The notes: a model not told the origin generated them from the sequence alone. DNA of 64,000 bases from Polyangia bacterium (GCA_030427835.1 JAUICN010000005.1:130496-194495); one strand, 5' to 3'. Positions 10,773-64,000 are shown, numbered from the stretch's first letter. A program made the numbers and translations.

Positions 10773-12194
10773 ATGCAACCTTACTTCAAGCTTTCAACGT
10801 CCCCCATTCTCCCGCTGCTGAGCACACTTTGTGTGGTGGGTGGGTGTTCTTTCGGCTCTGGGAACCCGCCTCGCGGTCAAAAGGGCAACCGTGGTACGAA
10901 CACCACGGAAGCCGCGAGCTATGAAGTCAAGTGGGCGGCTGTCCCTGCGTCGGAGTCCTACGGCCAGCCTCGCTTAGTGGTACGTGCGGGAATTCACAAG
11001 GAGGGTGGAGGGTTTCTCCCAGAGGAGGAGCGCAGCAGAGTTCAGGAACTGGGCCTATGGAGCTCGTTTGGTCCCGGTGGGGACGTGTACTTGCTCGATA
11101 CGCGAGTCATGCGAGCGGATCCGCGCTCAACATCTCCGGTAAGTTTGGCCCAGGTGCTGCAAGGGCACGCAACAAAAGCACAGACCCCTGAAGAATACGA
11201 ATGGAACGTACGCCGTGTGGATGTGGTGCAACTTCCATTGCAACGTCGTCACCGGATCCGACCAGAACCCGTAAGATTCTTTGTGGGGCCCCTCACGGGC
11301 ACCCGATCCAACTCCGATCTCATGGGAATGGACCCCGCGCCTGCACAACTGGGCACCGTCACGATTCCGATTCGGGACCAGGAGCTGCAGCGGATTTGGG
11401 TGTTTCTGGAACGAGCTTCCCACGCGTACCAAACTGCGCCCTGGCATACCCGTGTGGCCACACCTGGCGTGTTTCCCGAACGTGTTCCACTGGAGGCCCA
11501 ACAGGAGTTCGCCGAGCGCATTCTTCAGAGCATCCTGGAACTCATTCCACCGCCTACAAAAATCAAGGACGGCATCATGGAAGTCCTGGAGGAAGCCAAA
11601 GAGTTATTTGAGGCCCATGGCCGCACGGATTCCTTTGACCCATGGGTTACCCGCATTCATGAGTACGCATCGCTTCCGGATCAGGGCGTGGGGCGTGTCT
11701 GCCTGGAACACGTGCTTGAACTTGAACTGCTGTACGGAAAGATCGCCGCGCTGGTCTTGGACGGCGGTACGTACCGGCATTTTGAGAATGACCTTCGTAC
11801 CATGCTTGGGGGCGCCATGGTGGGGCGCATCGTGTCCCTCTCCATCATGGTGGGCTACGATCCGAGACTGCCCTACTACACACAGCGGGCATGGGCTTCT
11901 ATTCCCAACCAGTTTCATTTTGAGTGTATTCGCGACCCAGGGAGTTCCCAAGCGATGGGGTCGCGAACACGAAAAGAAATCACGGCCCATTTGAAATGGT
12001 TCGAACAACAAAACTCGGGCGTGGTCTACCACCCAGCTGTGGAGCAAATTCAACTTGAGGGTTTCCTAATGGAGATTCTCGATGCCTATTTTGAGTTTCG
12101 CCGCGACAACGGGGACTACGAGACCCTGCTGGATCGTTTGGAGAAGATGTGGAATCCGACCACCGACAACCCTGACTTGGGTCAGGAGGAATAG
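10773..12194 (+). CDS. Hypothetical lipoprotein, paralog 1 of a tandem pair (family C)
   Basis: Signal peptide with lipobox LCVVGGC. Shares ASYEVKWAAVPASESYGQPRLVV and other blocks with the next gene. Confidence 0.7.
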   Translation: MQPYFKLSTSPILPLLSTLCVVGGCSFGSGNPPRGQKGNRGTNTTEAASYEVKWAAVPASESYGQPRLVVRAGIHKEGGGFLPEEERSRVQELGLWSSFGPGGDVYLLDTRVMRADPRSTSPVSLAQVLQGHATKAQTPEEYEWNVRRVDVVQLPLQRRHRIRPEPVRFFVGPLTGTRSNSDLMGMDPAPAQLGTVTIPIRDQELQRIWVFLERASHAYQTAPWHTRVATPGVFPERVPLEAQQEFAERILQSILELIPPPTKIKDGIMEVLEEAKELFEAHGRTDSFDPWVTRIHEYASLPDQGVGRVCLEHVLELELLYGKIAALVLDGGTYRHFENDLRTMLGGAMVGRIVSLSIMVGYDPRLPYYTQRAWASIPNQFHFECIRDPGSSQAMGSRTRKEITAHLKWFEQQNSGVVYHPAVEQIQLEGFLMEILDAYFEFRRDNGDYETLLDRLEKMWNPTTDNPDLGQEE

Positions 12195-12200
12195 GTCGCT

Positions 12201-13745
12201 GTGAACTCCTCGACTGCAATCCCCCTAGGTGGTTGGCTTTTCCTTGGCCTTGCCAGTTGTGCTGTTGGCTGTGTTGCCCGTTCTTCTGCGCCTGCAACCG
12301 CAAAGACGCCATTTGAAACAGCGTCATCAGAAACCGCACCCTACGAAGTGAAGTGGTCGGTGGTGCCGTTTGAGGAGTCTTACAATCAACCACGGCTGTT
12401 TGTGGTGCCGACGATCGAATCCTACGGCGGGGATATCGAACGTCACCAGGCGCGAGGGTTCTGGCATCGCCACGGGCTTGTGGGCACCATGGCGACCTAC
12501 CTGGGTCCCGAGGAAACGGGCATCTCCACACCTGGCGCGAACGAACCCGGTTTTTATCGGGTGCAGCTACAGCACAACAGGTTGGACACCCCTGAGCCGG
12601 GCCAGACCGCAAAAGAGTTGAGTGAAGTGGCTGGCAAACAGGCCACTTTGAATGCCACCGCGGATGCGGTGCCACTGCCGCTTCAGCGGTGGTACCAGGC
12701 GGGGTATCCTGCGGTTCGCTTTCTCGCCACCTCCGTCTGGGGTGGCCCCAGTGCGGCGACCCACTTCTCGCCCAGGGAACCGAGTCCAGTACAATTGGGC
12801 ACCCTACGCCTGTGTCCTACTCCCGACGGTTGTGAAGATGTTTGGGTGTTTGCGGAACGGGTGACCCCCATCTACCTGACCCACGCTCGCCACCTATCGC
12901 CGATGCTTGCTCCAGGGTCAGTACCTGCTGAGCATGTTGCAGCTGTGAATCCTGCCACAGGCAGTATCCGCGACGTGGAACAAGCAGGGATCCGGTACGC
13001 GCAACAGGTGCTGAGTTCGATGGCACGGGCAATCCAAGTGCAAGGCGATGGAACTCGTGATGACTCCCCGGGAGGCCGCCTATTGACACGACTTTCGCAG
13101 ATCGCTGAAGCCACCGAGGTTTGGAACCGGCGCAACATTTTTGGTGGCTGGGGAAGTGCCCGCCGATTGGACGTGCGCAATCTTCGACCGGAAGTACTTG
13201 CACTCGACGCACCCGGCATGAAAAGGTGCCAAGCCCATGCCCTGGAACTCGTGATGCTTTTTCACCAGGTCACGGAGTTCGTGCTGGGGGGGTCGGTTGA
13301 GTTGCGCGATGCGCTGACCACACGGCTGGGAGAAGACGTGGCGCACCGCTTGCTCATTCTTCTGTTGAATGGCCAGGGCCTCAAACTCGCCAACGATTCT
13401 AGCGCCACCCTCAAGGACTATTTGTATTCGGTGAGCAATTCGATCCCCTGGGAGTTTGATCAGAAGTGCAAAAACATGGGTGGCATGGGCGACCCGATAC
13501 ATTCGGATCTATTGGAGAAAGCCCTCGAGGAGCTGCGAATACGGGCGACTGTGTACCGTTCCATCCTGAGCCACGCTTCGGTCCGAAACGCCCGGGCCAT
13601 GACATTGATGGAGGATATCTTTCTGCTCTATCTAGAGGGTTGGAATGCCTGGTACGGAGGAAACCACGGAGGCTCCGGCGAGATGGCTACGGCGCTGGAC
13701 ATCCTGGAGGCACACTGGGGTGTCTCACCGCCTTTTGATGGATAG
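12201..13745 (+). CDS. Hypothetical lipoprotein, paralog 2 of a tandem pair (family C)
   Basis: GTG start 6 nt after the upstream stop, with AGGAGGA 12 nt upstream. Lipobox GLASC. APYEVKWSVVPFEESYNQPRLFVV is paralogous to 10773-12194. Confidence 0.7.
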   Translation: MNSSTAIPLGGWLFLGLASCAVGCVARSSAPATAKTPFETASSETAPYEVKWSVVPFEESYNQPRLFVVPTIESYGGDIERHQARGFWHRHGLVGTMATYLGPEETGISTPGANEPGFYRVQLQHNRLDTPEPGQTAKELSEVAGKQATLNATADAVPLPLQRWYQAGYPAVRFLATSVWGGPSAATHFSPREPSPVQLGTLRLCPTPDGCEDVWVFAERVTPIYLTHARHLSPMLAPGSVPAEHVAAVNPATGSIRDVEQAGIRYAQQVLSSMARAIQVQGDGTRDDSPGGRLLTRLSQIAEATEVWNRRNIFGGWGSARRLDVRNLRPEVLALDAPGMKRCQAHALELVMLFHQVTEFVLGGSVELRDALTTRLGEDVAHRLLILLLNGQGLKLANDSSATLKDYLYSVSNSIPWEFDQKCKNMGGMGDPIHSDLLEKALEELRIRATVYRSILSHASVRNARAMTLMEDIFLLYLEGWNAWYGGNHGGSGEMATALDILEAHWGVSPPFDG

Positions 13746-52617: not shown

Positions 52618-53532
52618 TCAAAGCCCCAGTAGGCCAAGTGCGTCACTTTCCCAGGGCTTCCAATCCGTTACGCTTGGATCGTTGTTGAGCTCCTGCAGTA
52701 GGCCACTTAGGAGTGCCTTGGGATCCTTTCTAGCACTCCGCAGTTCTGCCAACGTGGTGGCCTGTTCACGTTTGGAAAACTTGCGTCCGTCGCCGTTCCG
52801 CAGAAGGGGAACATGCATGTATTTGGGTGATTTCGCGCCAAGAGCGGCAAACACTGCCCGTTGTCGTGGCGTGGACGGCAGTAGATCCTCTCCCCTCACC
52901 ACTTCCGTCACACCCAGTGCAAGATCATCGACCACGGTGGCAAGCTGATAGGCCCAAAGCCCATCGGTCCGTTGCAGCACAAAGTCACCACCCCACTCCG
53001 CGCCATCCACGTTTCCAGCCCAGCCGTCCACAAACGCCTCCACGGGTTCGCGCATCATGAACCTCCAGGATGCGCCATCCTGGGGTACGTACGCTGGCAA
53101 GGTTGATCCCCTATTTGTATCCCTGGGCCGGCAGGTTCCCGGGTACCGAACGCCAAGCCCCTCCACCCCATGGGGTGCGGTCGCCGCCTGTTCAATATCC
53201 TTCCGTGAGCAGGTGCAAGGGTAGGTCCAGCCCTTCGCGGTCAACCTTTGCAGCGCCTGCGCATAGATCTCAAAACGTTTGCTCTGGTACACGGGAGCAC
53301 CATCCCAGGTGAGGCCGAGCCATTCCAGATCCCGAAGTGTTTCGTCCACATAGGCCTGCCGTACCCGTGGCCCATCCAGATCATCCACTCGCAGCAACAG
53401 CGAGCCCCCGGCTTCCCTGGCGCGCAACCAAGCAAGCAAAAACGTCCGCCCGTGCCCCCGGTGCAGACCCCCGGATGGCGTTGGCGCCATCCGCCCCACG
53501 TACTTCACAGCGTTCGTCACATCGAGCTCCAT
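52618..53532 (-). CDS. gluQ: tRNA glutamyl-Q(34) synthetase (GluQRS)
   Basis: GRMAPTPSGGLHRGH, RVDDLDGPR, YPCTCSR, LATVVDDLALGVTEVVRGEDL and KFSKR motifs. Confidence 0.85.
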   Translation of the reverse strand: MELDVTNAVKYVGRMAPTPSGGLHRGHGRTFLLAWLRAREAGGSLLLRVDDLDGPRVRQAYVDETLRDLEWLGLTWDGAPVYQSKRFEIYAQALQRLTAKGWTYPCTCSRKDIEQAATAPHGVEGLGVRYPGTCRPRDTNRGSTLPAYVPQDGASWRFMMREPVEAFVDGWAGNVDGAEWGGDFVLQRTDGLWAYQLATVVDDLALGVTEVVRGEDLLPSTPRQRAVFAALGAKSPKYMHVPLLRNGDGRKFSKREQATTLAELRSARKDPKALLSGLLQELNNDPSVTDWKPWESDALGLLGL

Positions 53533-53540
53533 CCGTGTCC

Positions 53541-53556
53541 TGGCACGATCCCTGCA
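53541..53556 (+). promoter_or_regulatory. Sigma-54-type -24/-12 promoter-like element (TGGCACG-atcc-CTGCA)
   Basis: GG at 53542-43 and GC at 53554-55, 10 nt apart. The element lies 28 nt upstream of ATG 53584. Confidence 0.55.
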
Positions 53557-53583
53557 AAACCATATCAGCAAAAGGCCCCCCCA

Positions 53584-55458
53584 ATGCCAAACCCCCCAAT
53601 TGCCCTCATAAAACTCACACGGGTCGCCCTCGCTGCGACATTTTTCACCGCCTGCCTGGGGCCCACAGACCTGAGTGAACAGATTAAGAACGTCGACTCC
53701 ATGGCCGCAGCGCCGGCACCCATGGGGATCATGGTCCTGGCAGACCCGTCTGAACTAGCTGCCCTAAATGGCGTTGGAAAACGCCCAGAGTTTTCAGCGG
53801 CGGAGTTTCATCGCCAAACCATGGAACAGGCGTTTGTTCCTGAATCCACTTCCCGGCAGTACAACCCGGAGGTCGTCCTAGTCAGCAAAGCCTGTGCAGA
53901 CCCGCAATCGCTCAAGTGCATTGCCTACGGCTTGCAGCGCTTCATGGGCATGTACCCCGAATCGGTCACCCAAGAGACCCTAAGCGAGCTCAATCGCCTG
54001 TACCACAAGCAACATCAAGCATTGACAACCGACCTCAATAGCAGCGCGCAGTACATCGCAGCCAAGTATGGAACAGCCCCACGGATGGAAGAACTTCGGG
54101 AAGAACTCGGCCGGCTCACCCTGGCGCACCACACAGGAAAGCTCGACGAGATGGCGGTGCCCTACAGATCCCTGTCCGAGCTATCGAACAACGAACCCAC
54201 CATGGACGACGTGGCCTTTTTGTTTGGCGCCATCCAGGACCTATCCAAGTTGCACGCGAAAATCCTTCGCGCCGATAGCAACGCAGAGCTTCGGGCGCTT
54301 TGGGACCTGGTGAACATCACAGGCTTTGTGATCCCCTTTGAGGCACCGGTATTGGCCGCAGCTTCTGAGGCGTGGCGATGGCTTCGTTTGACCGCAGAAC
54401 TTGCGGGTGAGCTCATTCCCCTGGGGGTCACCCAATCCATCAAGACAGGCGTCGGTCATATGGTCTACGCCACCCGGAAATCCATCAACACCCTAGGGCG
54501 CATCCGCGTCACCTGGGATCAGGAGGTCTTTCACCGCCTCCACATGGGCCTACCCATCCCCTTCAAGCTCACCCTCAAACCGGCTGCCATGGGCAGGGGC
54601 CGTTTCAGCGACGCCTACAAACGGTTTGCACAGGAGGCGCAAATGGCCTCCAGTCGTGATGATTTGATCCGTATTGCTGAAACGCACAACAACCCGATCG
54701 CAAAGGGCTCCTATTCCATCGTGGTGCCGCGAGGAAACGGCACGGTCATCAAGATTGCGACCGACAGCCGGTGGGACGGCCAGGCCGCAAGGGCACTGGA
54801 AACAGCGGTACAAGGTTTGAAGATCAGTGCTGAGATGGGCTACCGGGTTCCCGCCAAAGTCAGCAAGGTCACCCACTACCTCATGCGGGCATCCAACGGC
54901 ACGCAAACACCCGCGGCATCCATCACCATGCAAGAGATCATCTCCACCGGAAACCCCATCTACGGGGCAGGTCGCAACCCCGTGCTCGGTGCCATCCACC
55001 AGGCGTACCACCGCGGAATTCACGAAGCGCTTGTGGAGCCCCTGGCCAAGGAACTTTCACGGCGAGGTTTTGAACCCGATCTATGGCCTCGAAACACCAT
55101 ATTCGCAGGCAACTTCAAAAAGTATTTACAGCAAGTGGCCGACCTGTTTTCGAGCACCACAAACTCCCTTTGGTACTTCAAACCCACGGTCGAGTCCCCA
55201 CTTCGCAATATGGGCACGTCCACTGGGGATAGGCTCCTAAAAAATGTTCAGACCTTCGTTTCAGGAGGCCGCCTTTCGGCCGCGGAAGAAAGGTGGGTGG
55301 TGAACCAATTTGGAGATCGCTACTGGACCAACGATGCCGCTGAAATCCTTCTCAACGTCATGACGCGGGAGGTCTACGTCGCTCCCACCAACATCCCGCC
55401 AACGCTCTTCAAGGAACTCCGTGATGCCTGGGTCATCGTGGACCCTGTCGTGCCATGA
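53584..55458 (+). CDS. Lipoprotein, family B paralog 1, with a C-terminal protein-kinase-like motif set
   Basis: ATG 53584 gives MPNPPIALIKLTRVALAATFFTAC. The C-terminal region carries KGSYSIVV..GTVIKIA, ALETAV, FEPDLWPRN and VADLF motifs. The ORF-track start at 53248 lies antisense inside gluQ. Confidence 0.7.
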   Translation: MPNPPIALIKLTRVALAATFFTACLGPTDLSEQIKNVDSMAAAPAPMGIMVLADPSELAALNGVGKRPEFSAAEFHRQTMEQAFVPESTSRQYNPEVVLVSKACADPQSLKCIAYGLQRFMGMYPESVTQETLSELNRLYHKQHQALTTDLNSSAQYIAAKYGTAPRMEELREELGRLTLAHHTGKLDEMAVPYRSLSELSNNEPTMDDVAFLFGAIQDLSKLHAKILRADSNAELRALWDLVNITGFVIPFEAPVLAAASEAWRWLRLTAELAGELIPLGVTQSIKTGVGHMVYATRKSINTLGRIRVTWDQEVFHRLHMGLPIPFKLTLKPAAMGRGRFSDAYKRFAQEAQMASSRDDLIRIAETHNNPIAKGSYSIVVPRGNGTVIKIATDSRWDGQAARALETAVQGLKISAEMGYRVPAKVSKVTHYLMRASNGTQTPAASITMQEIISTGNPIYGAGRNPVLGAIHQAYHRGIHEALVEPLAKELSRRGFEPDLWPRNTIFAGNFKKYLQQVADLFSSTTNSLWYFKPTVESPLRNMGTSTGDRLLKNVQTFVSGGRLSAAEERWVVNQFGDRYWTNDAAEILLNVMTREVYVAPTNIPPTLFKELRDAWVIVDPVVP

Positions 55459-55591
55459 GTCGCGTGATCGGCTTGAGAGCATCGAGAAACCGGTCGAGTG
55501 GTCTGGGCCGCAGTGGCCACCGGGTTGCAATATGGCTCCGCCGAGCCTGTCCCTGATGGGGAAATCTTCCAAAGGTCCGTGGTTTTCCGCT

Positions 55592-55607
55592 TGGCATGAA
55601 GGGTGCT
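55592..55607 (+). promoter_or_regulatory. Sigma-54-type -24/-12 promoter-like element (TGGCATG-aagg-GTGCT)
   Basis: GG at 55593-94 and GC at 55605-06, 10 nt apart. The element lies 15 nt upstream of ATG 55622. Confidence 0.45.
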
Positions 55608-55621
55608 TGGGCATCCTTCCC

Positions 55622-57055
55622 ATGCATCAACGATTTCTGTATTTCCTTGGGAGCCTGGCCCTTGCGGTCCTTGCCGCATGCAGCCTAGGCCCCACTCCTG
55701 ACCGTTCATCCAAGGGTCATCTCTCCTCGGCGCTGCAAGACACATTGTTTGTCATGGCGAAGTTTCCAAGGTTCGGCTGCGTGGTCGATCCACAGACGGT
55801 GGTCACCCATCCCTTTCAATCGCCCGCCTTTGCGGTGCGCTGCCCCCAGCGTTCCGGGGGCCCAAGCGGCATTCAATGCAAGGGCCCCCAGGGAAACCAA
55901 AGCTGTGTGGTGGATGGCCTTTTCGCCACCTCAAGTGAGTTAGCCTCCGTGCAACGCACGCCCCAGTCCTACGAACAATGGGTAGCCCAACAGCATGCCC
56001 TAGCCAACGGGGCCCTACGGGGGTCAGGCCACGTGCCCACCAACATATTCGCCGAGGCGACTCCCGATGACGAGGGCAACCTGGAAACATGGTCCCTACT
56101 TGCCATCTACGATCCCCACGCCATGACCCTCGCCGCCCTGGAAAACGGCGAAGACATCAACGATGTTGATCTGGGTGAGGCCGAAGCGCTCGGAATGCCG
56201 TTGGAGCTAGCAGAACAACCCGGTATTCGTTGGGGTGGCGGCCTGGGATACGTGGCCATTGCAGGCTCCTCTGTACAGCTACTGAGCACCCAAGCCATCA
56301 CGTGGAGGTCCCTCCGTCACCTGGTCAAGCGAACCATCGCCAACGCCATCATGACCGCCACCCTCATGGTCGACGTGGCCACCGAACTGGTGAGCCTGGA
56401 CGGAGCCCGGGAATATCAACTGCGCCGCGGCTACCACACCGCCTCCGGCATCACACTCCCTGTGCCCCCAGAGCACCAGGTATTCCGATCAGGCACCTGG
56501 CGCGAAGTGGATCTCGCACTCGGCCCGGCCGCCATCGCCCTTACGTGGGAGCGCCTGTCTGAGCCCTCCTCCGGGTCCACTTCCGGCAAGGTACTCACTG
56601 TGGGGTTGTCGGACATCATCCAGCGGGACGGCACCTTGGTGATGTTCCCCGAGTACAGCGACAAACTTAACGCATACAAATCCAGTTTTCGGCAAGACAG
56701 GTTCGACCGCTGTGGCATGGGCTATCTCGGGGTGTCCGGTACCTGCTACCAGATGGCCGGAACAGACCACCTTCTTTGCAGTGAAGCCGCGACTGTGTTT
56801 GCCGCCGCCTGCCTTCTACTCGACACGGCGCAGGTGTGGGACCCATCCTCTAAATGCGGAACAAGCCGAAGCCTGTGCAATGGCTTCCTTGTCTTCGACA
56901 GTGTGGCGGGTCGGCACGGGCTTTTGGTGAAGACCGCCCAAAGCCCGCCCGACGTGGTGCTGCAAAATGCCGCCAATCAGTTCAATCTCACCCACATGTG
57001 CAGCAACGGCTACGAATCCTGCATGCAGCGAAAAGAAATCACAGAGATCCCCTAG
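55622..57055 (+). CDS. Lipoprotein, family A paralog 1
   Basis: MHQRFLYFLGSLALAVLAAC. Shares the GGPSGIQC and GMPLELAEQP blocks with A2/A3 and a Cys-rich C-terminal module with A2. Confidence 0.7.
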   Translation: MHQRFLYFLGSLALAVLAACSLGPTPDRSSKGHLSSALQDTLFVMAKFPRFGCVVDPQTVVTHPFQSPAFAVRCPQRSGGPSGIQCKGPQGNQSCVVDGLFATSSELASVQRTPQSYEQWVAQQHALANGALRGSGHVPTNIFAEATPDDEGNLETWSLLAIYDPHAMTLAALENGEDINDVDLGEAEALGMPLELAEQPGIRWGGGLGYVAIAGSSVQLLSTQAITWRSLRHLVKRTIANAIMTATLMVDVATELVSLDGAREYQLRRGYHTASGITLPVPPEHQVFRSGTWREVDLALGPAAIALTWERLSEPSSGSTSGKVLTVGLSDIIQRDGTLVMFPEYSDKLNAYKSSFRQDRFDRCGMGYLGVSGTCYQMAGTDHLLCSEAATVFAAACLLLDTAQVWDPSSKCGTSRSLCNGFLVFDSVAGRHGLLVKTAQSPPDVVLQNAANQFNLTHMCSNGYESCMQRKEITEIP

Positions 57056-57197
57056 ATAGATCTGCCAATCCGGAATCAATTTCGGCTTCACAGCCTGGGC
57101 GGGGGTAGCCAGTAAGTGAGTGAAGTGGGGCCTACAGCCCACAGGAATCGCAGTTCCTACCACGTGTGCATCGTGCATTTGTGGCGCGATTGTTGTG

Positions 57198-57213
57198 TGG
57201 CACGGGACCTGCT
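57198..57213 (+). promoter_or_regulatory. Sigma-54-type -24/-12 promoter-like element (TGGCACG-ggac-CTGCT)
   Basis: GG at 57199-200 and GC at 57211-12, 10 nt apart. The element lies 64 nt upstream of ATG 57277. Confidence 0.55.
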
Positions 57214-57276
57214 TTACGGGGGGGTATGTTGTACCCCACCCCCCCAAATACAAAACTGAATCACCTGGCCGAATGC

Positions 57277-58659
57277 ATGTCGTGGCTCGGCTTGCTTGCC
57301 CTTACATCAACCGCCTGTGCCGTCGCGCCTGCGAACACAGCAGAGCACGTATTCGCCAACAAGCGAGCTGTAACCAACACTACAGAGCTCTCCGTGGTCG
57401 TGGCGGCCAAGTCCCAGCGGCACGATTGCTTGCCTGCACAACACGTGCGACCCGCGGATGACCTGCACCCCACCGCTTGGTACCCTGTCGAGTGCAAGCG
57501 CGGCAACCCCGGCCCCAGTGGCGTCGATTGTCACACCCGAGGATTGGACATCTATTGCACCATCTCCAACGCGTACGTTCCTGACGACGGCTCCCCTGAA
57601 ATTAGTGAAACACAACTCACCTCTGGAACATTCAACGATTGGCTCTCTCGCCAAATCGCAAGTGCACGTAGCCATCTGAAAAGTGGGCAGGCCCTGGCAG
57701 GATCCGGCGAAGTGTTTGCCTGGGGCGGACCCCAAAAATCCCCATGGCTCCACAACAGTGTAGTTGGAAAAGCCAAGTACAGCCTCACCGTCTACAACGT
57801 CATGGCGGTGGCGGATGCCCCTGCGTTTACGGCAGCTCTGGTGAACAACCACCCAGAATACGAACTGGATGAAGCCAAAGCTCAAAAAGCAGGGATCCCA
57901 CTGGAGTGGGTGGCAGCGCCTGCGATACTCTATGGCGAGTTTGGTTTCACAGCCGTACAGGCCAGTGCGCTTGAGGCCAGCGCGGGTGGTTGGATCATGT
58001 CGGCTGAAACCCTAAGCATGCTTGCCAGGGGCACCATCGCAAGAACCGCTTCCGCCTCGTTTCAGATTCACGGCCTGCTCACCTGGCTCTTCCCACCGAA
58101 AAACGGCGCCATCGCCTACCACGTGCTCGACGCCTACACCTACGGCGACACCACCCACATCACCCCCGCCACCCCACAAGACACCATCACCTCCGGCGAC
58201 TGGGACGACGTCCTCCCCCAACTCGCCACCCACGCCCTAGAACTCACAAACGCCATCTATGCAACCTCGACGACCAACATGCTTGTTCCTGACGCAAACG
58301 GCATCGTAGCCTACCCTGAAGAATTTGCCGCTGACATCGAGGCGGCCAAAACGGAGAGCGCATCGGCGAACTGTCACCGCGGGTATCGAGGGGTACGCGA
58401 CACTTGCAACGCAACTCACGGTGGCGATCTGCAAGACGACACGCGCCAAGCCTACTGCGACTACCTGGCGGCGGGATTCTTGAAAGGCTGTCGAATGGCG
58501 CAGTCCGCAGGAAACGCCCCATTCGCCTGCCAGGCTGGTTTCTCCAGTTGCAATTTTTACAGCATGATAACGCCAACGCGAGACACGTTTTGGGAGAGCG
58601 CCCCAACAGACCCGAGAACAACTGCCATCTGTGCTGAGGGTATGAACAAGTGTCAATAA
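57277..58659 (+). CDS. Lipoprotein, family A paralog 2
   Basis: MSWLGLLALTSTAC. Colinear with A3 over about 330 aa, through VECKRGNPGPSGVDCH, KSPWLH, AGIPLEWVAAPAILYGEFGF and ASASFQIHGLL. Confidence 0.75.
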   Translation: MSWLGLLALTSTACAVAPANTAEHVFANKRAVTNTTELSVVVAAKSQRHDCLPAQHVRPADDLHPTAWYPVECKRGNPGPSGVDCHTRGLDIYCTISNAYVPDDGSPEISETQLTSGTFNDWLSRQIASARSHLKSGQALAGSGEVFAWGGPQKSPWLHNSVVGKAKYSLTVYNVMAVADAPAFTAALVNNHPEYELDEAKAQKAGIPLEWVAAPAILYGEFGFTAVQASALEASAGGWIMSAETLSMLARGTIARTASASFQIHGLLTWLFPPKNGAIAYHVLDAYTYGDTTHITPATPQDTITSGDWDDVLPQLATHALELTNAIYATSTTNMLVPDANGIVAYPEEFAADIEAAKTESASANCHRGYRGVRDTCNATHGGDLQDDTRQAYCDYLAAGFLKGCRMAQSAGNAPFACQAGFSSCNFYSMITPTRDTFWESAPTDPRTTAICAEGMNKCQ

Positions 58660-58711
58660 GCAAAAGAATCCTGTGGGCGACAGGGAGGAAGCAGCCTGCT
58701 AACACCCCCGG

Positions 58712-59482
58712 GTGCGCTCCAACCTAGATACACTTTGCGGCTGCTTTCCCACGGGCAGGCACTACCCTGGGATTGCGGATTTGATCGCCAAATCCGTAGT
58801 CAAAGTGGATGGTTTGGCGGGTTCCTACACCCCGGATCGGGTTTGGAAGCGCCTTCCCCTGGTGGTCATCGACTTTGAAACCACGGGGCTGAACCCGGAA
58901 AACGATCGTGTGTTGGAAATGGGCCTGGTCTTCTTTCGGGACGGCAAGTTTGAGGATCGCCACAACTGGCTCATCAACCCTGGCATGCCCGTTCCCAAGG
59001 AATCCAGCGACGTCCACGGCATCACCGATGAACAGCTGGCAGACGCTCCCTTCTTTGAACAAATCTTTGATGAAGTCCTGGGCCACCTCAAGGATAGGGT
59101 GCCCGTGGCCTACAACGCCCCCTTCGACCGTAAGTTCCTCCACGCCGAAGCCGCACGCTTGGGCTATGGAGGGCTAACCCAACTGGGTGATGTGCCACCT
59201 GCGCTCGACACGGAAGCGGTGTGGATCGATCCCCTGGTGTGGGTACGTGAACTGCAAAAGTTCGAGAAGGGAAAAAAGCTCACCGACGTGGCCGCCCGCA
59301 TGAACATCCCGCTGGATAACGCCCACCGCGCTTCTGGCGACGCCGAAGCCACGGGCCACGTACTCATGGCACTCGCCAAGGACATGCCCGAATCCTACGG
59401 AGAGCTCGTTCGCATCCAGGGCCGCTACAGCGCCCAGCAGGAAGCCGAGTTCGCCGCCTGGCGCGCCAAGAGAAAGGGCTAG
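58712..59482 (+). CDS. DEDDh 3'-5' exonuclease (DNA polymerase III epsilon-like)
   Basis: Exo I VVIDFETTG, Exo II YNAPFDRKFL, Exo III HRASGDAEAT. The start is uncertain: GTG 58712 or GTG 58805. Confidence 0.8.
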   Translation: MRSNLDTLCGCFPTGRHYPGIADLIAKSVVKVDGLAGSYTPDRVWKRLPLVVIDFETTGLNPENDRVLEMGLVFFRDGKFEDRHNWLINPGMPVPKESSDVHGITDEQLADAPFFEQIFDEVLGHLKDRVPVAYNAPFDRKFLHAEAARLGYGGLTQLGDVPPALDTEAVWIDPLVWVRELQKFEKGKKLTDVAARMNIPLDNAHRASGDAEATGHVLMALAKDMPESYGELVRIQGRYSAQQEAEFAAWRAKRKG

Positions 59483-59486
59483 AGCA

Positions 59487-60557
59487 TTGTCGTCCACAGC
59501 AAAGCGATCCCTTCCATGGAGACAGGGGCTCGGCCTGCCCTGGTCCCCCAAGCGAAAGATCCTCGTATTCAGCGCCCTGACCGCCGCCGCAAGTTGGGGC
59601 GTTGTACTCATGTTCACGGCCCTGGGCGGCAAGGGTGGCACACCCGCATCTGCCGCGGTCTGGAGGCTCTACACCCTTTGCCCCGCCATGATGGCCCTGC
59701 TTGTGCGGGGAGCCATTTCCCAACAGCCCCTGCTCGGCCCCCTGGGCCTTTCCCTCAAACTCAACCGCTATTGGATGGTCGCCTGGCTGCTACCCATCGG
59801 CCTCACCGCCGCATCCTGGCTGCTTAGCGGTCTCGTACCTGGAATCAGCGTTAGCACGGACATCCAAACCTTTTTGGATCATTTCCAATCCCGTGCCGGT
59901 GCGGATCCAGAGGCCTATGCCACCTTTGAAAAACAGGTGCGTGAATCCATCGCCGACGGCCCCCACCCCGCGTTTCGCATGCTGCTCCAAGCCATGGTGG
60001 CAGGCATGACCCTCAACGCGCTAACAGCCCTGGGAGAAGAACTGGGCTGGCGCGGTTTCCTTTCGCACGAACTCGCAGCCCATAAAAACGCAGCCCACGC
60101 CGCGAGCAACAAGCGCAATGCCGATCAGTCGCAAGCGGTCGGCTCTGGAAACGTGGATAGGGCGTTTTGGAACCGCTCCTGGATCGTGGGTGGCGCCTGG
60201 GGCCTCTGGTACCTGCCCTTCGCGCTCACCGGCTTTCCCTTTCCCGGTGCGCCCGTCACCAGCGCCTTCCTTCTGCCCCTGTGGTGCCTCGCCACCGGCC
60301 CCCTGTTTGCGTGGTTGCGTGTACGCAGCGGCTCCATCTTCGCCGTGGGCATCCTGCACGGAACCTGGTTCGGTCTTATTGAATTGCCCCACCTCGTCAC
60401 CCGAGTAGCAGAAGGCACCCCCGCCTGGATGAACCACCTCGCCATCGGCCCCCAAAGCCTCATCGGAATCCTCCTGGCCGCCACAGTCTCCCTCTACCTA
60501 ACCACCCGCCCCCCACCCACTCCCCAGGGCTCAGAGCACCGCACAAACGTGGCCTAG
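59487..60557 (+). CDS. CPBP-family intramembrane glutamic endopeptidase (Abi-like)
   Basis: GEELGWRGFL and VGILHG motifs with multiple TM segments. The TTG start lies 4 nt after the exonuclease stop. Confidence 0.7.
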   Translation: MSSTAKRSLPWRQGLGLPWSPKRKILVFSALTAAASWGVVLMFTALGGKGGTPASAAVWRLYTLCPAMMALLVRGAISQQPLLGPLGLSLKLNRYWMVAWLLPIGLTAASWLLSGLVPGISVSTDIQTFLDHFQSRAGADPEAYATFEKQVRESIADGPHPAFRMLLQAMVAGMTLNALTALGEELGWRGFLSHELAAHKNAAHAASNKRNADQSQAVGSGNVDRAFWNRSWIVGGAWGLWYLPFALTGFPFPGAPVTSAFLLPLWCLATGPLFAWLRVRSGSIFAVGILHGTWFGLIELPHLVTRVAEGTPAWMNHLAIGPQSLIGILLAATVSLYLTTRPPPTPQGSEHRTNVA

Positions 60558-60784
60558 GCCCCGGTTTTCAGCTCAAATTTCGCGTCAACGCGCGTCCCAC
60601 TGGGGTTCAGTCACCCCAGCCAGGTGGCGGAACCGGTTGTGTTCCAAGGAACATTCGCTGTTCCCTCAGAACGACTCAGAATCACCTTGATATCAAACGG
60701 TATTCACATTTTTGCAGAGCAATACAGGCCCGCTGTCTGGAACACTTGCTGCTCCAGTTCTTAAGAAATCACGTGCTTTTTTGA

Positions 60785-60800
60785 TGGCACGGGCTGTGCA
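60785..60800 (+). promoter_or_regulatory. Sigma-54-type -24/-12 promoter-like element (TGGCACG-ggct-GTGCA)
   Basis: GG at 60786-87 and GC at 60798-99, 10 nt apart. The element lies 41 nt upstream of ATG 60841, which has a GGAGAA SD. Confidence 0.55.
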
Positions 60801-60840
60801 TCCATTTCTGCCAGACTCTCAGTTTTATTGGAGAAACCCC

Positions 60841-62493
60841 ATGCCCAGTCAGCTCATTCACAAATCCATCGCCCTAACCACCCTAGGCCTACTCGCCTGC
60901 GGCACTCCTTCTCAAGCGAATCGTACAAAATCCACATCTCCCGGGCACAGCATGGAGTTGTCCGGTGTTGTGGTCGGAAAATCGGTACGTCACGGTTGCC
61001 GGCCAACGGAAGAGATCTTTCCTTCAGACGATGACCACACCACAAGCTGGCATGCCGTCGAATGCAAACGAAGTAATCCAGGGCCCAGTGGTGTTTCCTG
61101 TCACTCAAGTACGTTTGGAGACCGGTATTGCACCGTCGGTAATATTCATATACCGGCAGACGGAACACCCGACATCACGGAGGCTCAGTTAACGGGACAG
61201 AGCTACGACGCATGGATCGTTCGGCAAGTCAGCAAGGCCCGGAAACGATTGAGAGATGGTCAGTCCATGGCAGTACTAAGCGAGGTTTTTGCCCTTAGCG
61301 GGCCCGAAAAGTCTCCGTGGTTACACCAAGATCCAATTCGCAGAAACAAGTACAGCATTAAGATAGCCAACGTAATGGGCGTGACCGACGCGCCTGGTTT
61401 GTCTGTGGCTGTAGCCAGGAACAACGAAGATATTGAACTCGACGAACAAGAGCTAGCCCGGTCAGGCATTCCCTTGGAACTCGCAGGAGCCCCTGCTTTA
61501 TTTTGGGGCGAGTTCGGTTTTGCGACGGCCGAAGCGTCGTCGATCGTGGTTACAGCGTCGTCTGGAGTGGGTAGCATTGGTATTGAGGCGCTTAGTTTCC
61601 TAGCGAAAGGAGCAATCGCCCGTGGAGCAGCAGCATCGTTTCAGATCGCTGGGATACTTGAGTTTTTCTTCCCCATTTTAGATGACGCGGAAGCGTATTT
61701 CGTTCACGAGGTGCGGCAGATAGACGGTGTGACCTCTGTGGAACCCGCGACTCAGCAGAATACTGTGGTGTCCGGTGAATGGAGTGAGGCACAGGCGCTT
61801 CTAGTGCGTCGTACGCTGGAACTTGCAAGCGCACACTACGGAGCGGACACGCTCGATAGAGAAGCAGTGGAAAAACACCTTGCTGGTCTTGATCTTCCAG
61901 AAACAGCGCTCGATGACGCTATCCGGCTTGCTCCATTGAATGCGGATCGACTAGAGGAAATCGCAGAGACCTATGGCAAGGGTGATGGATCGAGCATCTG
62001 TGAAGTCGTCGGTGCTGAAAACAGGGCAGAAGGAAGTGCCAACAACCACGTGATGTGTGAAAGAGGTCGAAAAGCCATTAGACCATCCGCTTCTGCCAGC
62101 TATTCCATGATGACCCTGCGGGCTAGAAATGGAAATCCCACACGCTTTATTATGGGCAAACTCCATTACACATATGGACCACGCCGTCTTCTGACTCAGT
62201 TCCCAGTGCCCATGGGCGATCGTCTGAGCGCCGGTGCCCATGGAGACTATTCGGTGACGCCAGGATTCCTACGAAGTCGAACAACAGACGTCCTTGTTGC
62301 CTTGGATGTGATTCACGCAGTGTACTCAGCCGCAAAGTGCCGCGAGCATCTGACCTACATGGTACCGATCTCCGCTACGGGTGCTCGATTCAGCTCGTTT
62401 GGTGATAGCTATCTTGTACAGTTCCCATCAGGTGGAAGCGTTCAGCTTGAAAAGTGCCTACCGAATACCCTGTCTGATGTCGGTCGTCTGTAG
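60841..62493 (+). CDS. Lipoprotein, family A paralog 3, with a distinct C-terminal module
   Basis: MPSQLIHKSIALTTLGLLAC. Homologous to A2 up to about nt 61850, then about 215 aa unrelated to A1 or A2. GC is visibly lower. Confidence 0.75.
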   Translation: MPSQLIHKSIALTTLGLLACGTPSQANRTKSTSPGHSMELSGVVVGKSVRHGCRPTEEIFPSDDDHTTSWHAVECKRSNPGPSGVSCHSSTFGDRYCTVGNIHIPADGTPDITEAQLTGQSYDAWIVRQVSKARKRLRDGQSMAVLSEVFALSGPEKSPWLHQDPIRRNKYSIKIANVMGVTDAPGLSVAVARNNEDIELDEQELARSGIPLELAGAPALFWGEFGFATAEASSIVVTASSGVGSIGIEALSFLAKGAIARGAAASFQIAGILEFFFPILDDAEAYFVHEVRQIDGVTSVEPATQQNTVVSGEWSEAQALLVRRTLELASAHYGADTLDREAVEKHLAGLDLPETALDDAIRLAPLNADRLEEIAETYGKGDGSSICEVVGAENRAEGSANNHVMCERGRKAIRPSASASYSMMTLRARNGNPTRFIMGKLHYTYGPRRLLTQFPVPMGDRLSAGAHGDYSVTPGFLRSRTTDVLVALDVIHAVYSAAKCREHLTYMVPISATGARFSSFGDSYLVQFPSGGSVQLEKCLPNTLSDVGRL

Positions 62494-62617
62494 TTGTTGT
62501 CCATCGAACCACCAGGCGCTTCTGCGAACAATGCGGTATTCCGGGCGCCTGTTTCCGGTTGAGCAAACCCGCTGTGCTATTTGATGGAACTAGTCGAGCG
62601 TTCATAGTGGTGAGCTG

Positions 62618-64000
62618 TTGTACCGTCTAAGCAACATCGCTCTGGTTCGCGCAACCCTTTTGGGATGCATGTGCCTACTCGCAGCATGCAGTGCGCCTGA
62701 CGCAGCAAGCATCAAGCGCACCACAAATCAGGCGCCCACGTCCGTTCAGGTTTTGTACAGTCCGGAGCAGCTTGCTCAGGTTCAGAAGCTGCAGGAGGAA
62801 ATGCGGGATCCGAACTCCCTGTTCTACCAGAAGACAACGCAGCTCCATGCAACTGCAGCCGTGCACCACCAATACAGCAACCAACACTTTGCCGCCCCGG
62901 ACGCCACCCAAACCCAACCCGTGTTCATTCCAAGCGAGCTTTCCAGGGCATGCAAAAACCCGCTCACAGGAAAATGCACCGCGGCACGCCTGAAAGTGCA
63001 GTTCGGCATGGAGCACATCGATGCTGGTACCGTCGTCGCGTTGGAGTCTGCGTACAACATCACTCGAGCGGATGTCGGAGCCTTTGTGGGCGTCAGAGAG
63101 GCGAAGTCCTACGGGTATTCCCTGCCCAATATGCTCGCCAACGGCGACATGGTGAAACTGCTCAAGGAATACGAGGCGATCGTCACTCAACACAGCCAGG
63201 GAAAGCTGTACAACCAACCTTTGCTCGAGCAAACCGCACATCAACTCGCCATGATCGAACGGGGCGAATATCTCTTGGCCGACGCCCATTTCCACCTGCA
63301 CGCCATCGAAGAGCTTCTCGCCTTCCGATCCCGGGTGGATTCCGCGTGGTCCTGGCGCCACGTGTCTGCCGTGGGTGAGGCACTCTTGCTTGCAGGCTGG
63401 GTGTTGCCCTACCACCTGATCCTTTTCGAGGCCTTTACTTCCATCCCCCTGGGTGCCGCCATCACGGCTGGCACTCGACACGGATTGCACTTGATTTCCC
63501 TGGGTACCTCCAGGGTTGTTACCGCCGCAGGCCAGGTAGTCCAAAAGCAGGTCTACGCCACCCTCCGCTATCTCAAGAACACAGGTGTTGTACGTTTGCT
63601 CAACGGCACCGGGCGCCTTCGAATCGTATTCAATCCAGCCGCCCTCTCCCGCATCTATGTCGGCGTTCCTGGTTCGCCCCTTAGGTTCGTGGTCGATCAT
63701 GTCGCCGATGTTCAAGTGGGCCCCAGGGTGTTCACCGCACTATCCGCGTTGGATGATGTAGCCTTTCGCAGCTTTGACGAAGTTCTCCTGTGGTTGGAAA
63801 GCCAACTCGACAACACCGTTAAGGTACTGGGTACCGATCGCCGCATCGGCGCCGCCACCCTCCGCATCACGGACGATGGTGCCTTTCTCATCCTAGGTAG
63901 GGATGCTGCCGCTTCCGGTAAGATTCTGAGTTCCCTAGAATCCGCGGCACCCAAACTCAAGCTGGGAAAACCTATTGCCACCATACTTTCAAACGGTGCA
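62618..64000 (+). CDS. Lipoprotein, family B paralog 2, 3'-truncated by the window edge (not in the ORF track)
   Basis: The frame is open from the stop at 62591-93 to nt 64000. TTG 62618 gives MYRLSNIALVRATLLGCMCLLAAC. Shares SRACKNPLTGKC, AWSW and VYATLRYLKNTG blocks with 53584-55458. Confidence 0.65.
   Translation, partial: MYRLSNIALVRATLLGCMCLLAACSAPDAASIKRTTNQAPTSVQVLYSPEQLAQVQKLQEEMRDPNSLFYQKTTQLHATAAVHHQYSNQHFAAPDATQTQPVFIPSELSRACKNPLTGKCTAARLKVQFGMEHIDAGTVVALESAYNITRADVGAFVGVREAKSYGYSLPNMLANGDMVKLLKEYEAIVTQHSQGKLYNQPLLEQTAHQLAMIERGEYLLADAHFHLHAIEELLAFRSRVDSAWSWRHVSAVGEALLLAGWVLPYHLILFEAFTSIPLGAAITAGTRHGLHLISLGTSRVVTAAGQVVQKQVYATLRYLKNTGVVRLLNGTGRLRIVFNPAALSRIYVGVPGSPLRFVVDHVADVQVGPRVFTALSALDDVAFRSFDEVLLWLESQLDNTVKVLGTDRRIGAATLRITDDGAFLILGRDAAASGKILSSLESAAPKLKLGKPIATILSNGA

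Follow-up and report, generated by a model that had tools for sequence, protein, structure and literature searches.

In a 64,000-nt stretch of DNA from a Polyangia bacterium (GCA_030427835.1 JAUICN010000005.1:130496-194495, hereafter the window), we analyzed three lipoprotein genes, A1, A2, and A3, whose products (family A) share an N-terminal domain and differ in their C-terminal tails: A1 and A2 carry a common Cys-rich module, and A3 carries an unrelated domain instead. The explanation we favor, with about even confidence, is that these proteins are modular, disulfide-bonded orphan lipoproteins of the envelope whose genes, located in accessory islands, would have arisen through ancient duplication and the replacement of domains, with A3 as a later-acquired copy. 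All coordinates are those of the whole window; the Logan contig L001 adds 8.5 kb past its 3' end, giving 72.5 kb in total and contributing a further lipoprotein gene, C1. The genes in question are composed as follows (GC3, GC content at third codon positions):

55622-57055, + strand: A1, lipoprotein of 477 aa with the signal peptide MHQRFLYFLGSLALAVLAAC, the most divergent family A N-domain, and a Cys-rich tail
57277-58659, + strand: A2, whole gene
57277-58272, + strand: A2 signal peptide, lipobox, and family A N-domain (aa 1-332, four conserved Cys)
58273-58659, + strand: A2 C-terminal linker and Cys-rich module (twin Cx10C plus twin Cx6C)
60558-60840, no strand: low-GC spacer (0.51) upstream of A3, belonging to a ~2.06-kb low-GC tract (60558-62617)
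60841-62493, + strand: A3, whole gene
60841-61851, + strand: A3 signal peptide, lipobox (GLLAC), and family A N-domain (aa 1-337), GC3 0.537
61852-62493, + strand: A3 alternative tail, 213 aa with 4 Cys, GC3 0.463
L001:17871-19325, about 4.7-6.2 kb past the window's 3' end: C1, lipoprotein of 484 aa, lipobox VSVAGC, GC3 0.57

A2 and A3 were aligned by BLASTP at 46% identity over aa 34-332 and 36-337, respectively (E 3.9e-94), with nothing reported further on. The last aligned nucleotides are 58272 (A2) and 61851 (A3), in agreement with a sequence-only reading of this DNA, which had placed the end of colinearity at about 58270 and 61850. A1 and A2 aligned over their full length (aa 8-467 and 3-459, 22% identity, E 4e-20), and the alignment of A1 with A3 reached only aa 300 and 321 (E 1.9e-18). 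Tails were compared by Smith–Waterman scores against 500 shuffles. The score of the A1 tail against the A2 tail was equalled by 0/500 shuffles (z-score 6.4), and the eight Cys have the same spacing in both, which bears out the proposal that the Cys-rich tail of A2 is common to A1. The A3 tail showed no significant similarity to the A2 tail (z-score 1.7, 31/500 shuffles) and none to the A1 tail (z-score −0.5), and a hidden Markov model (HMM) of the Cys module scored below zero bits on A3. By neither BLASTP nor Smith–Waterman comparison is the 213-aa C-terminal domain of A3 homologous to the tails of A1 and A2, and the description of this domain as unrelated therefore holds. A score of the A3 tail against the N-terminal region of C1 (z-score 2.9) was taken as chance, the BLAST match extending over 26 residues with E 0.067.

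It had further been claimed that A2 and A3 diverge completely past the junction. This stands in that no significant similarity between the tails was found; it may, however, be slightly overstated with regard to the junction itself. Amino acid identity between A2 and A3 drifts from ~0.5 to ~0.33 across the last 50 residues before the junction and shows no sharp break. Furthermore, A3 has CERGRKAIR (aa 406-414) where the Cys module starts in A1 (CGMGYLGVS), A2 (CHRGYRGVR), and C1 (CSQGATAVR). Across the 22,120 aa of local protein sequence, the pattern C-x-x-G-x-x-x-[IV]-[RS], which was defined post hoc and lies where the alignment is not significant, is found just four times, in each case at the module start (A1, A2, A3, and C1). 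This hints that the tail replacement in A3 may have begun a few residues inside the Cys module and not at the end of the N-domain.

The Cys module comprises eight conserved Cys with identical spacing (Cx10C...Cx10C...Cx6C...Cx6C) in A1, A2, and C1, which in A1 occupy positions 364, 375, 386, 397, 412, 419, 460, and 467. Comparison of the A2 and C1 tails gave a z-score of 9.4 with equal Cys spacing, and the N-terminal 330 aa of C1 showed no similarity to families A and B (z-score ≤ 1.5). The module is thus found on two scaffolds within this one genome, the A-type N-domain (A1 and A2) and the C1 N-terminus. The A-type N-domain is combined with two different tails, and the Cys tail with two different N-domains, which amounts to genuine domain shuffling.

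Cys counts are even throughout: the N-domain has 4, the Cys module 8, and the A3 tail 4. AlphaFold2 predicted the Cys tail of A2 to be all-helical, with a predicted local distance difference test score (pLDDT) of 60-88 over aa 350-460. We infer that Cys spaced at i/i+11 and i/i+7 would lie on one face of a helix in each pair, and this spacing together with the predicted helices suggests that the module may form two helical hairpins, each stapled by two disulfides. The invariant residues are only Cys, Gly, Val, Asp, Ala, Phe, Asn, and Tyr, with no obvious catalytic set conserved; since no polar catalytic set is invariant, the module fits better with a stable binding or structural role than with an enzyme. 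The CHCH fold (twin Cx9C type) is likewise a disulfide-stapled helical hairpin. The A1/A2 module resembles this twin-CxnC type in its Cys pairs, fixed spacing, consecutive predicted helices, and extracytoplasmic oxidizing setting, but differs from it in spacings of 10 and 6 rather than 9 or 3 and in its bacterial lipoprotein context. In addition, neither a sequence match nor a fold match was obtained for the module, in which the pairing is a predicted one. In A2, the disulfides would link C366 to C405, C377 to C394, C418 to C459, and C425 to C452.

The split between A2 and A3 is old. Only ~0.3 of third codon positions are identical between the two genes, compared to 0.6-0.7 of first and second positions, and in the N-domain the proportions of synonymous (pS) and nonsynonymous (pN) differences according to Nei–Gojobori are 0.80, i.e., saturated, and 0.35, respectively. 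Because pS is saturated at a pN of 0.35, the codon comparison identifies A2 and A3 as real genes under purifying selection, with an ancient split. A DNA-level recombination scar is not expected after so ancient a split, and none was seen; a recent recombination breakpoint was rejected as third-position identity is at random level throughout. With 46% identity, A2 and A3 are sisters, and A1 (22-25% identical to either) is the outgroup. As both A1, the outgroup, and A2 carry the Cys module, parsimony over these sequences makes it most likely that their common ancestor already had the module and that the A3 lineage exchanged it for another tail.

The gene A3 and its upstream region had also been described as lower in GC than their neighbors, and GC and GC3 values confirmed a discrete dip. 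GC amounts to 0.52-0.545 at about 60.6-62.8 kb compared to 0.58-0.65 in the flanks. GC3 of A3 is 0.508 (0.537 in the N-terminal part and 0.463 in the tail), compared to 0.64-0.74 in neighboring genes, and is the lowest among 53 open reading frames (ORFs) in the 72.5 kb (mean 0.677, sd 0.061). The low-GC tract spans from the stop of the Rce1-like gene upstream to the start of the gene B2 downstream, both spacers included. Since the whole of A3 and its spacers deviate in composition and not the tail alone, acquisition of a complete gene fits better than a tail swap in place, and A3 looks like a separately acquired complete gene and not like a resident gene that was given a new tail. At the left edge of the tract, exactly at the Rce1-like stop, we noted a 16-nt overlapping palindrome, AAACGTGGCCTAGGCCCCGGTT (60545-60566), possibly a terminator or the boundary of an insertion.

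The 3' part of the window holds five lipoprotein genes on the + strand (B1, A1, A2, A3, and B2) and two backbone genes. Besides those listed above, these are:

53584-55458, + strand: B1, 624-aa lipoprotein whose gene opens island 1
58712-59482, + strand: RNase_T-type 3'-5' exonuclease, backbone gene between the two lipoprotein islands
59487-60557, + strand: Rce1/CPBP-like membrane protease, backbone gene between the two lipoprotein islands
62618-64000, + strand, running off the window: B2, 669 aa from TTG 62618, with the signal peptide MYRLSNIALVRATLLGCMCLLAAC; the partner of A3 in island 2
L001:11778-13787: B2 on the Logan contig

Each island couples a B gene with one or more A genes (B1-A1-A2 and A3-B2). 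The host represents, judging from UvrB, an isolated lineage of Myxococcota, since the UvrB encoded in the window reaches no more than ~71% identity across the whole protein (74% in one partial match) with orthologues in Myxococcota metagenome-assembled genomes (Polyangiales, Sandaracinaceae). The RNase_T gene has orthologues with 60-64% identity in such genomes. In three Polyangiales relatives (L082, L083, and L084), GluQ-RS adjoins RNase_T, followed by an Rce1-like gene, with GloB nearby; L082 has also kept RsmD, CoaD, and PhoH, and its Rce1-like gene lacks a Pfam hit. A-, B-, or C-like genes were absent from all three. As the housekeeping block (window 52618-60557) is thus conserved in relatives without A, B, or C genes, comparison of gene order marks B1-A1-A2, A3-B2, and the C1 group as three lineage-specific insertions. 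No convincing flanking repeats or mobile-element scars were found around the islands. In L083, the slot after the Rce1-like gene (L083:11850-12887) holds an unrelated lipoprotein with two internal repeats, and such slots in the housekeeping block seem to collect variable envelope genes.

Family B, by sequence comparison, repeats the pattern of family A, i.e., a common front part with differing tails. The N-terminal ~330-415 aa of B1 and B2 are homologous (24% identity, E 1e-10), and their last ~200 aa are unrelated (z-score 0.1). Remote kinship of the A, B, and C N-domains was considered and rejected (hhalign probability 0.08 for A vs. B; Smith–Waterman z-score ≤ 1.5). Inspected by eye, the B1 tail (54574-55458) contains GSYSIVV...GTVIKIA, then DLWPRN, and ADLF ~20 residues further on, which recalls a protein-kinase-like fold; Pfam and PDB sequence searches for this resemblance gave no match. 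At 10773-12194 and 12201-13745, two further neighboring genes encode paralogous proteins with a lipobox, which lack Pfam matches and are 25% identical over their full length (E 1e-23). A minus-strand ORF of 346 aa lies wholly within B2 (62675-63715) and is most likely a shadow ORF of the GC-rich region and no gene.

The lipoboxes of family A read VLAAC (A1), TSTAC (A2), and GLLAC (A3), are followed in all three proteins by a short Pro/Ser/Thr-rich tether, and have Lys at +2 in none; the rule by which the +2 residue sorts lipoproteins (PMC5562445) may not apply in Polyangia. In public gene calls, A2 begins at 57226 (477 aa, with a longer signal peptide) and A1 at 55424 (543 aa, overlapping B1). 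For A1, the lipoprotein signal peptide favors a start at 55622 over 55424; A2 may start at either 57226 or 57277. We also observed a moderately hydrophobic stretch ~235-280 aa from the N-terminus in five of six lipoproteins of three unrelated families (aa ~239-257 in A1, ~235-280 in A3, ~242-260 in B1, ~238-268 in B2, and ~259-277 in C1). A2 has no hydropathy peak above threshold there, and its low-confidence model has a helix at aa 243-271; the region corresponds to a ~29-residue helix in the low-confidence models of both A2 and A3.

Relatives of family A were sought in several collections. An HMMER profile built from all of A3 and the N-domains of A1 and A2 retrieved A1-A3 only from 1.84 billion representatives of ~15 billion proteins, and a word-indexed search of 5.8 billion clusters with A3 returned only A3 itself. 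GTDB genomes, IMG/VR, and, in two rounds of which the second used the Cys module, JGI metagenomes were scanned by pattern and tblastn and yielded nothing, and tblastn found no match in plasmids and phages, so that none of these scans located family A in another genome. A word-indexed search with the Cys-module alignment was empty as well, but is a weak negative, having missed even A1 and A2 themselves. The tails had no meaningful match in Pfam, NCBIfam, and PDB sequences at E ≤ 10 or in PADLOC and PHROGs at E ≤ 1, and the entire A1, A2, and A3 proteins had none in Pfam, NCBIfam, PHROGs, and PADLOC.

According to the explanation we favor, family A proteins would be lipid-anchored and extracytoplasmic and follow one plan, consisting of a signal peptide, a tether, an N-domain of ~300 aa with four Cys, a linker, and a C-terminal module. 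The ancestral tail would be the Cys-rich module. On the A3 branch, an unrelated sequence of ~135-175 aa would have taken the place of this module from directly behind its first Cys motif, and the same module would have been joined separately to the N-terminus of the C1 lipoprotein. Judging from the discrete low-GC tract around it, A3 itself would be a copy that was acquired later and separately. Lipid anchor and N-domain would place the protein in the outer membrane, the periplasm, or vesicles, and the interchangeable tail would decide what it binds or acts on. Several points weigh against this explanation. The AlphaFold2 model of A3, based on a three-sequence alignment, is unusable (pLDDT 33.9), and that of A2 is mostly poor (pLDDT 49), only the Cys tail being moderately confident. 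No fold was recognized when the A2 model was compared to the PDB with Foldseek (best E 0.44). The proposed disulfide pairing is deduced from Cys spacing and a medium-confidence model, and the direction of the tail replacement was derived from three sequences. Finally, a lipobox, a ~330-aa domain, a variable tail, clustered N-families, a tail that crosses families, and a myxobacterial host together give the locus, by analogy, the look of a SitA-type system.

This last point leads to the most probable alternative, although we regard it as rather unlikely: family A may consist of SitA-like or other polymorphic lipoprotein effectors, with the N-domain as escort or delivery part and the tails as swappable toxic or prey-directed modules. 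Delivery would proceed by outer-membrane exchange, vesicles, or contact, and immunity would either not be linked to these genes or, with prey-specific targets, not be needed. SitA proteins are lipoprotein toxins of Myxococcus with a family-specific escort domain of ~375 aa and modular C-terminal nucleases, and form six non-homologous families (PMC8546572, PMC5562445). They are encoded in sitBAI or sitAI cassettes with always adjacent sitI immunity genes and serve as cargo of outer-membrane exchange, their delivery depending on TraAB (PMC5562445, PMC8546572); traAB is also found outside the Cystobacterineae (PMC6372800), so that outer-membrane exchange would be conceivable here as well. Family A shares with SitA a myxobacterial host, a type II signal peptide with lipobox, a short unstructured tether, and a family-defining N-domain of a few hundred residues (a conserved region of ~300-330 aa) ahead of C-terminal modules that are unrelated to one another. 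Several mutually non-homologous N-families (A, B, and C) are clustered in one genome, which parallels the six SitA families, and, as with SitA toxin domains, one C-terminal module is common to different N-families (A and C1). The genes furthermore lie in accessory islands, and A3 is atypical in composition.

However, other features set family A apart from SitA. The profile search of 1.84 billion representatives and the comparisons to NCBIfam and Pfam revealed no homology to any protein, all SitA families included. No candidate immunity ORF and no sitB-like gene was found at A1-A3: the A1-A2 gap (221 nt) holds just a 47-codon GTG ORF, the A2-RNase_T gap (52 nt) leads to a gene that is conserved backbone in relatives, the A3-B2 gap (124 nt) contains no ORF, and beyond the gaps lie genes for large lipoproteins or conserved backbone genes. 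Also considered as immunity genes of A2, RNase_T and the Rce1-like CPBP protease were rejected, being conserved neighbors of GluQ-RS in the three relatives without A or B genes. SitA tails are usually recognizable nucleases, whereas the family A tails match no nuclease or other known toxin domain even at permissive thresholds, and one of them, a predicted helical module with eight Cys of disulfide type, is an odd fit for a toxin that has to enter the cytoplasm. The variation, moreover, is between ancient paralogs of one genome and not between alleles, the junction is gradual, and neither a mobile-element signature nor flanking repeats were detected.

In polymorphic toxins in general, a variable C-terminal part follows a conserved N-terminal part that serves trafficking, and tails are reused on different scaffolds. 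Family A matches this description in its conserved N-terminal part with variable tail and in the occurrence of the Cys tail on two N-scaffolds, which applies to this genome only. It deviates from it in having no immunity gene, no orphan cassettes of tail and immunity gene, no conserved pre-toxin motif at the junction or sharp break in identity, and no tail that is common to another delivery system in public data. Orphan tail cassettes were absent from the 72.5 kb, and tblastn of all tails found no additional copy except C1. Of the proposal of a polymorphic effector family, the swapping of modules thus stood and even proved wider than claimed, extending to C1 and family B, but an immunity ORF, a toxin domain, and a sharp junction were not found. 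Structure prediction and remote homology searches of both tail types, which had been suggested, gave no recognizable toxin fold and, in the collections searched, no relative outside this genome, and family A does not appear to be a toxin–immunity system. Family A also resembles ordinary lineage-specific paralogous lipoproteins of myxobacteria, which are located near each other or in tandem, evolve fast, lack annotation, and occupy variable slots between conserved genes; unlike in these, the exchange is explicit and reciprocal in A and C1, and family A has no detectable relatives among the ~15 billion proteins. In a more specific version, which we consider distinctly unlikely and which argues by analogy, the A, B, and C lipoproteins would be previously unseen, Polyangia-specific, lipid-anchored effectors that are analogous to SitA, with new, mutually non-homologous escort domains, shuffled tails as new payloads, and no linked immunity, for example because the proteins would be aimed via vesicles or contact at prey and not at kin. 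One payload would be the disulfide-stapled helical module.

A further alternative, which we hold to be quite improbable, concerns the A3 tail alone. It might be what degeneration or a frameshift has left of the Cys module, i.e., de novo sequence past a lesion, in a gene that is decaying. In line with this, A3 still has CERGRKAIR, with which the module starts, where it would be expected, its GC3 is the lowest in the region and lowest of all in the tail (0.463), consistent with weak selection, and the tail has no relative among the 1.84 billion representatives. An open frame of 213 codons would, however, be unlikely without selection by our rough estimate, and the Cys count of the tail is even. 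The N-domain of A3 has remained 46% identical to that of A2 despite saturated synonymous sites, which argues that the gene as a whole was maintained. A frameshift origin in particular, though conceivable at this degree of divergence, is unsupported, as a search of the remaining frames of the tail DNA turned up no trace of the Cys module. The least probable alternative, that spurious ORFs or an assembly chimera produced an apparent mosaic, would draw on the fact that the genome is known from a single assembly lineage, represented by an NCBI contig (261,744 bp) and one Logan contig, but can practically be dismissed, as the Logan contig (run ERR3428547, a separate record) encodes an identical A3 and is identical to the window base by base over the compared stretch, the paralogs show a clear coding-type substitution pattern, and the edges of the low-GC tract coincide with gene boundaries.

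What these findings mean differs between the readings. If the proteins were delivered effectors after all, the logic of SitA-type systems would be extended to a distant, uncultured branch of the Myxococcota, with new parts and with payloads that are absent from databases. The locus also cautions that a conserved head with a variable tail does not by itself identify a polymorphic toxin. It shows variable lipoprotein islands settling in fixed slots of a conserved housekeeping block, and, within these islands, provides a clean, small example of reciprocal domain shuffling in orphan envelope lipoproteins.

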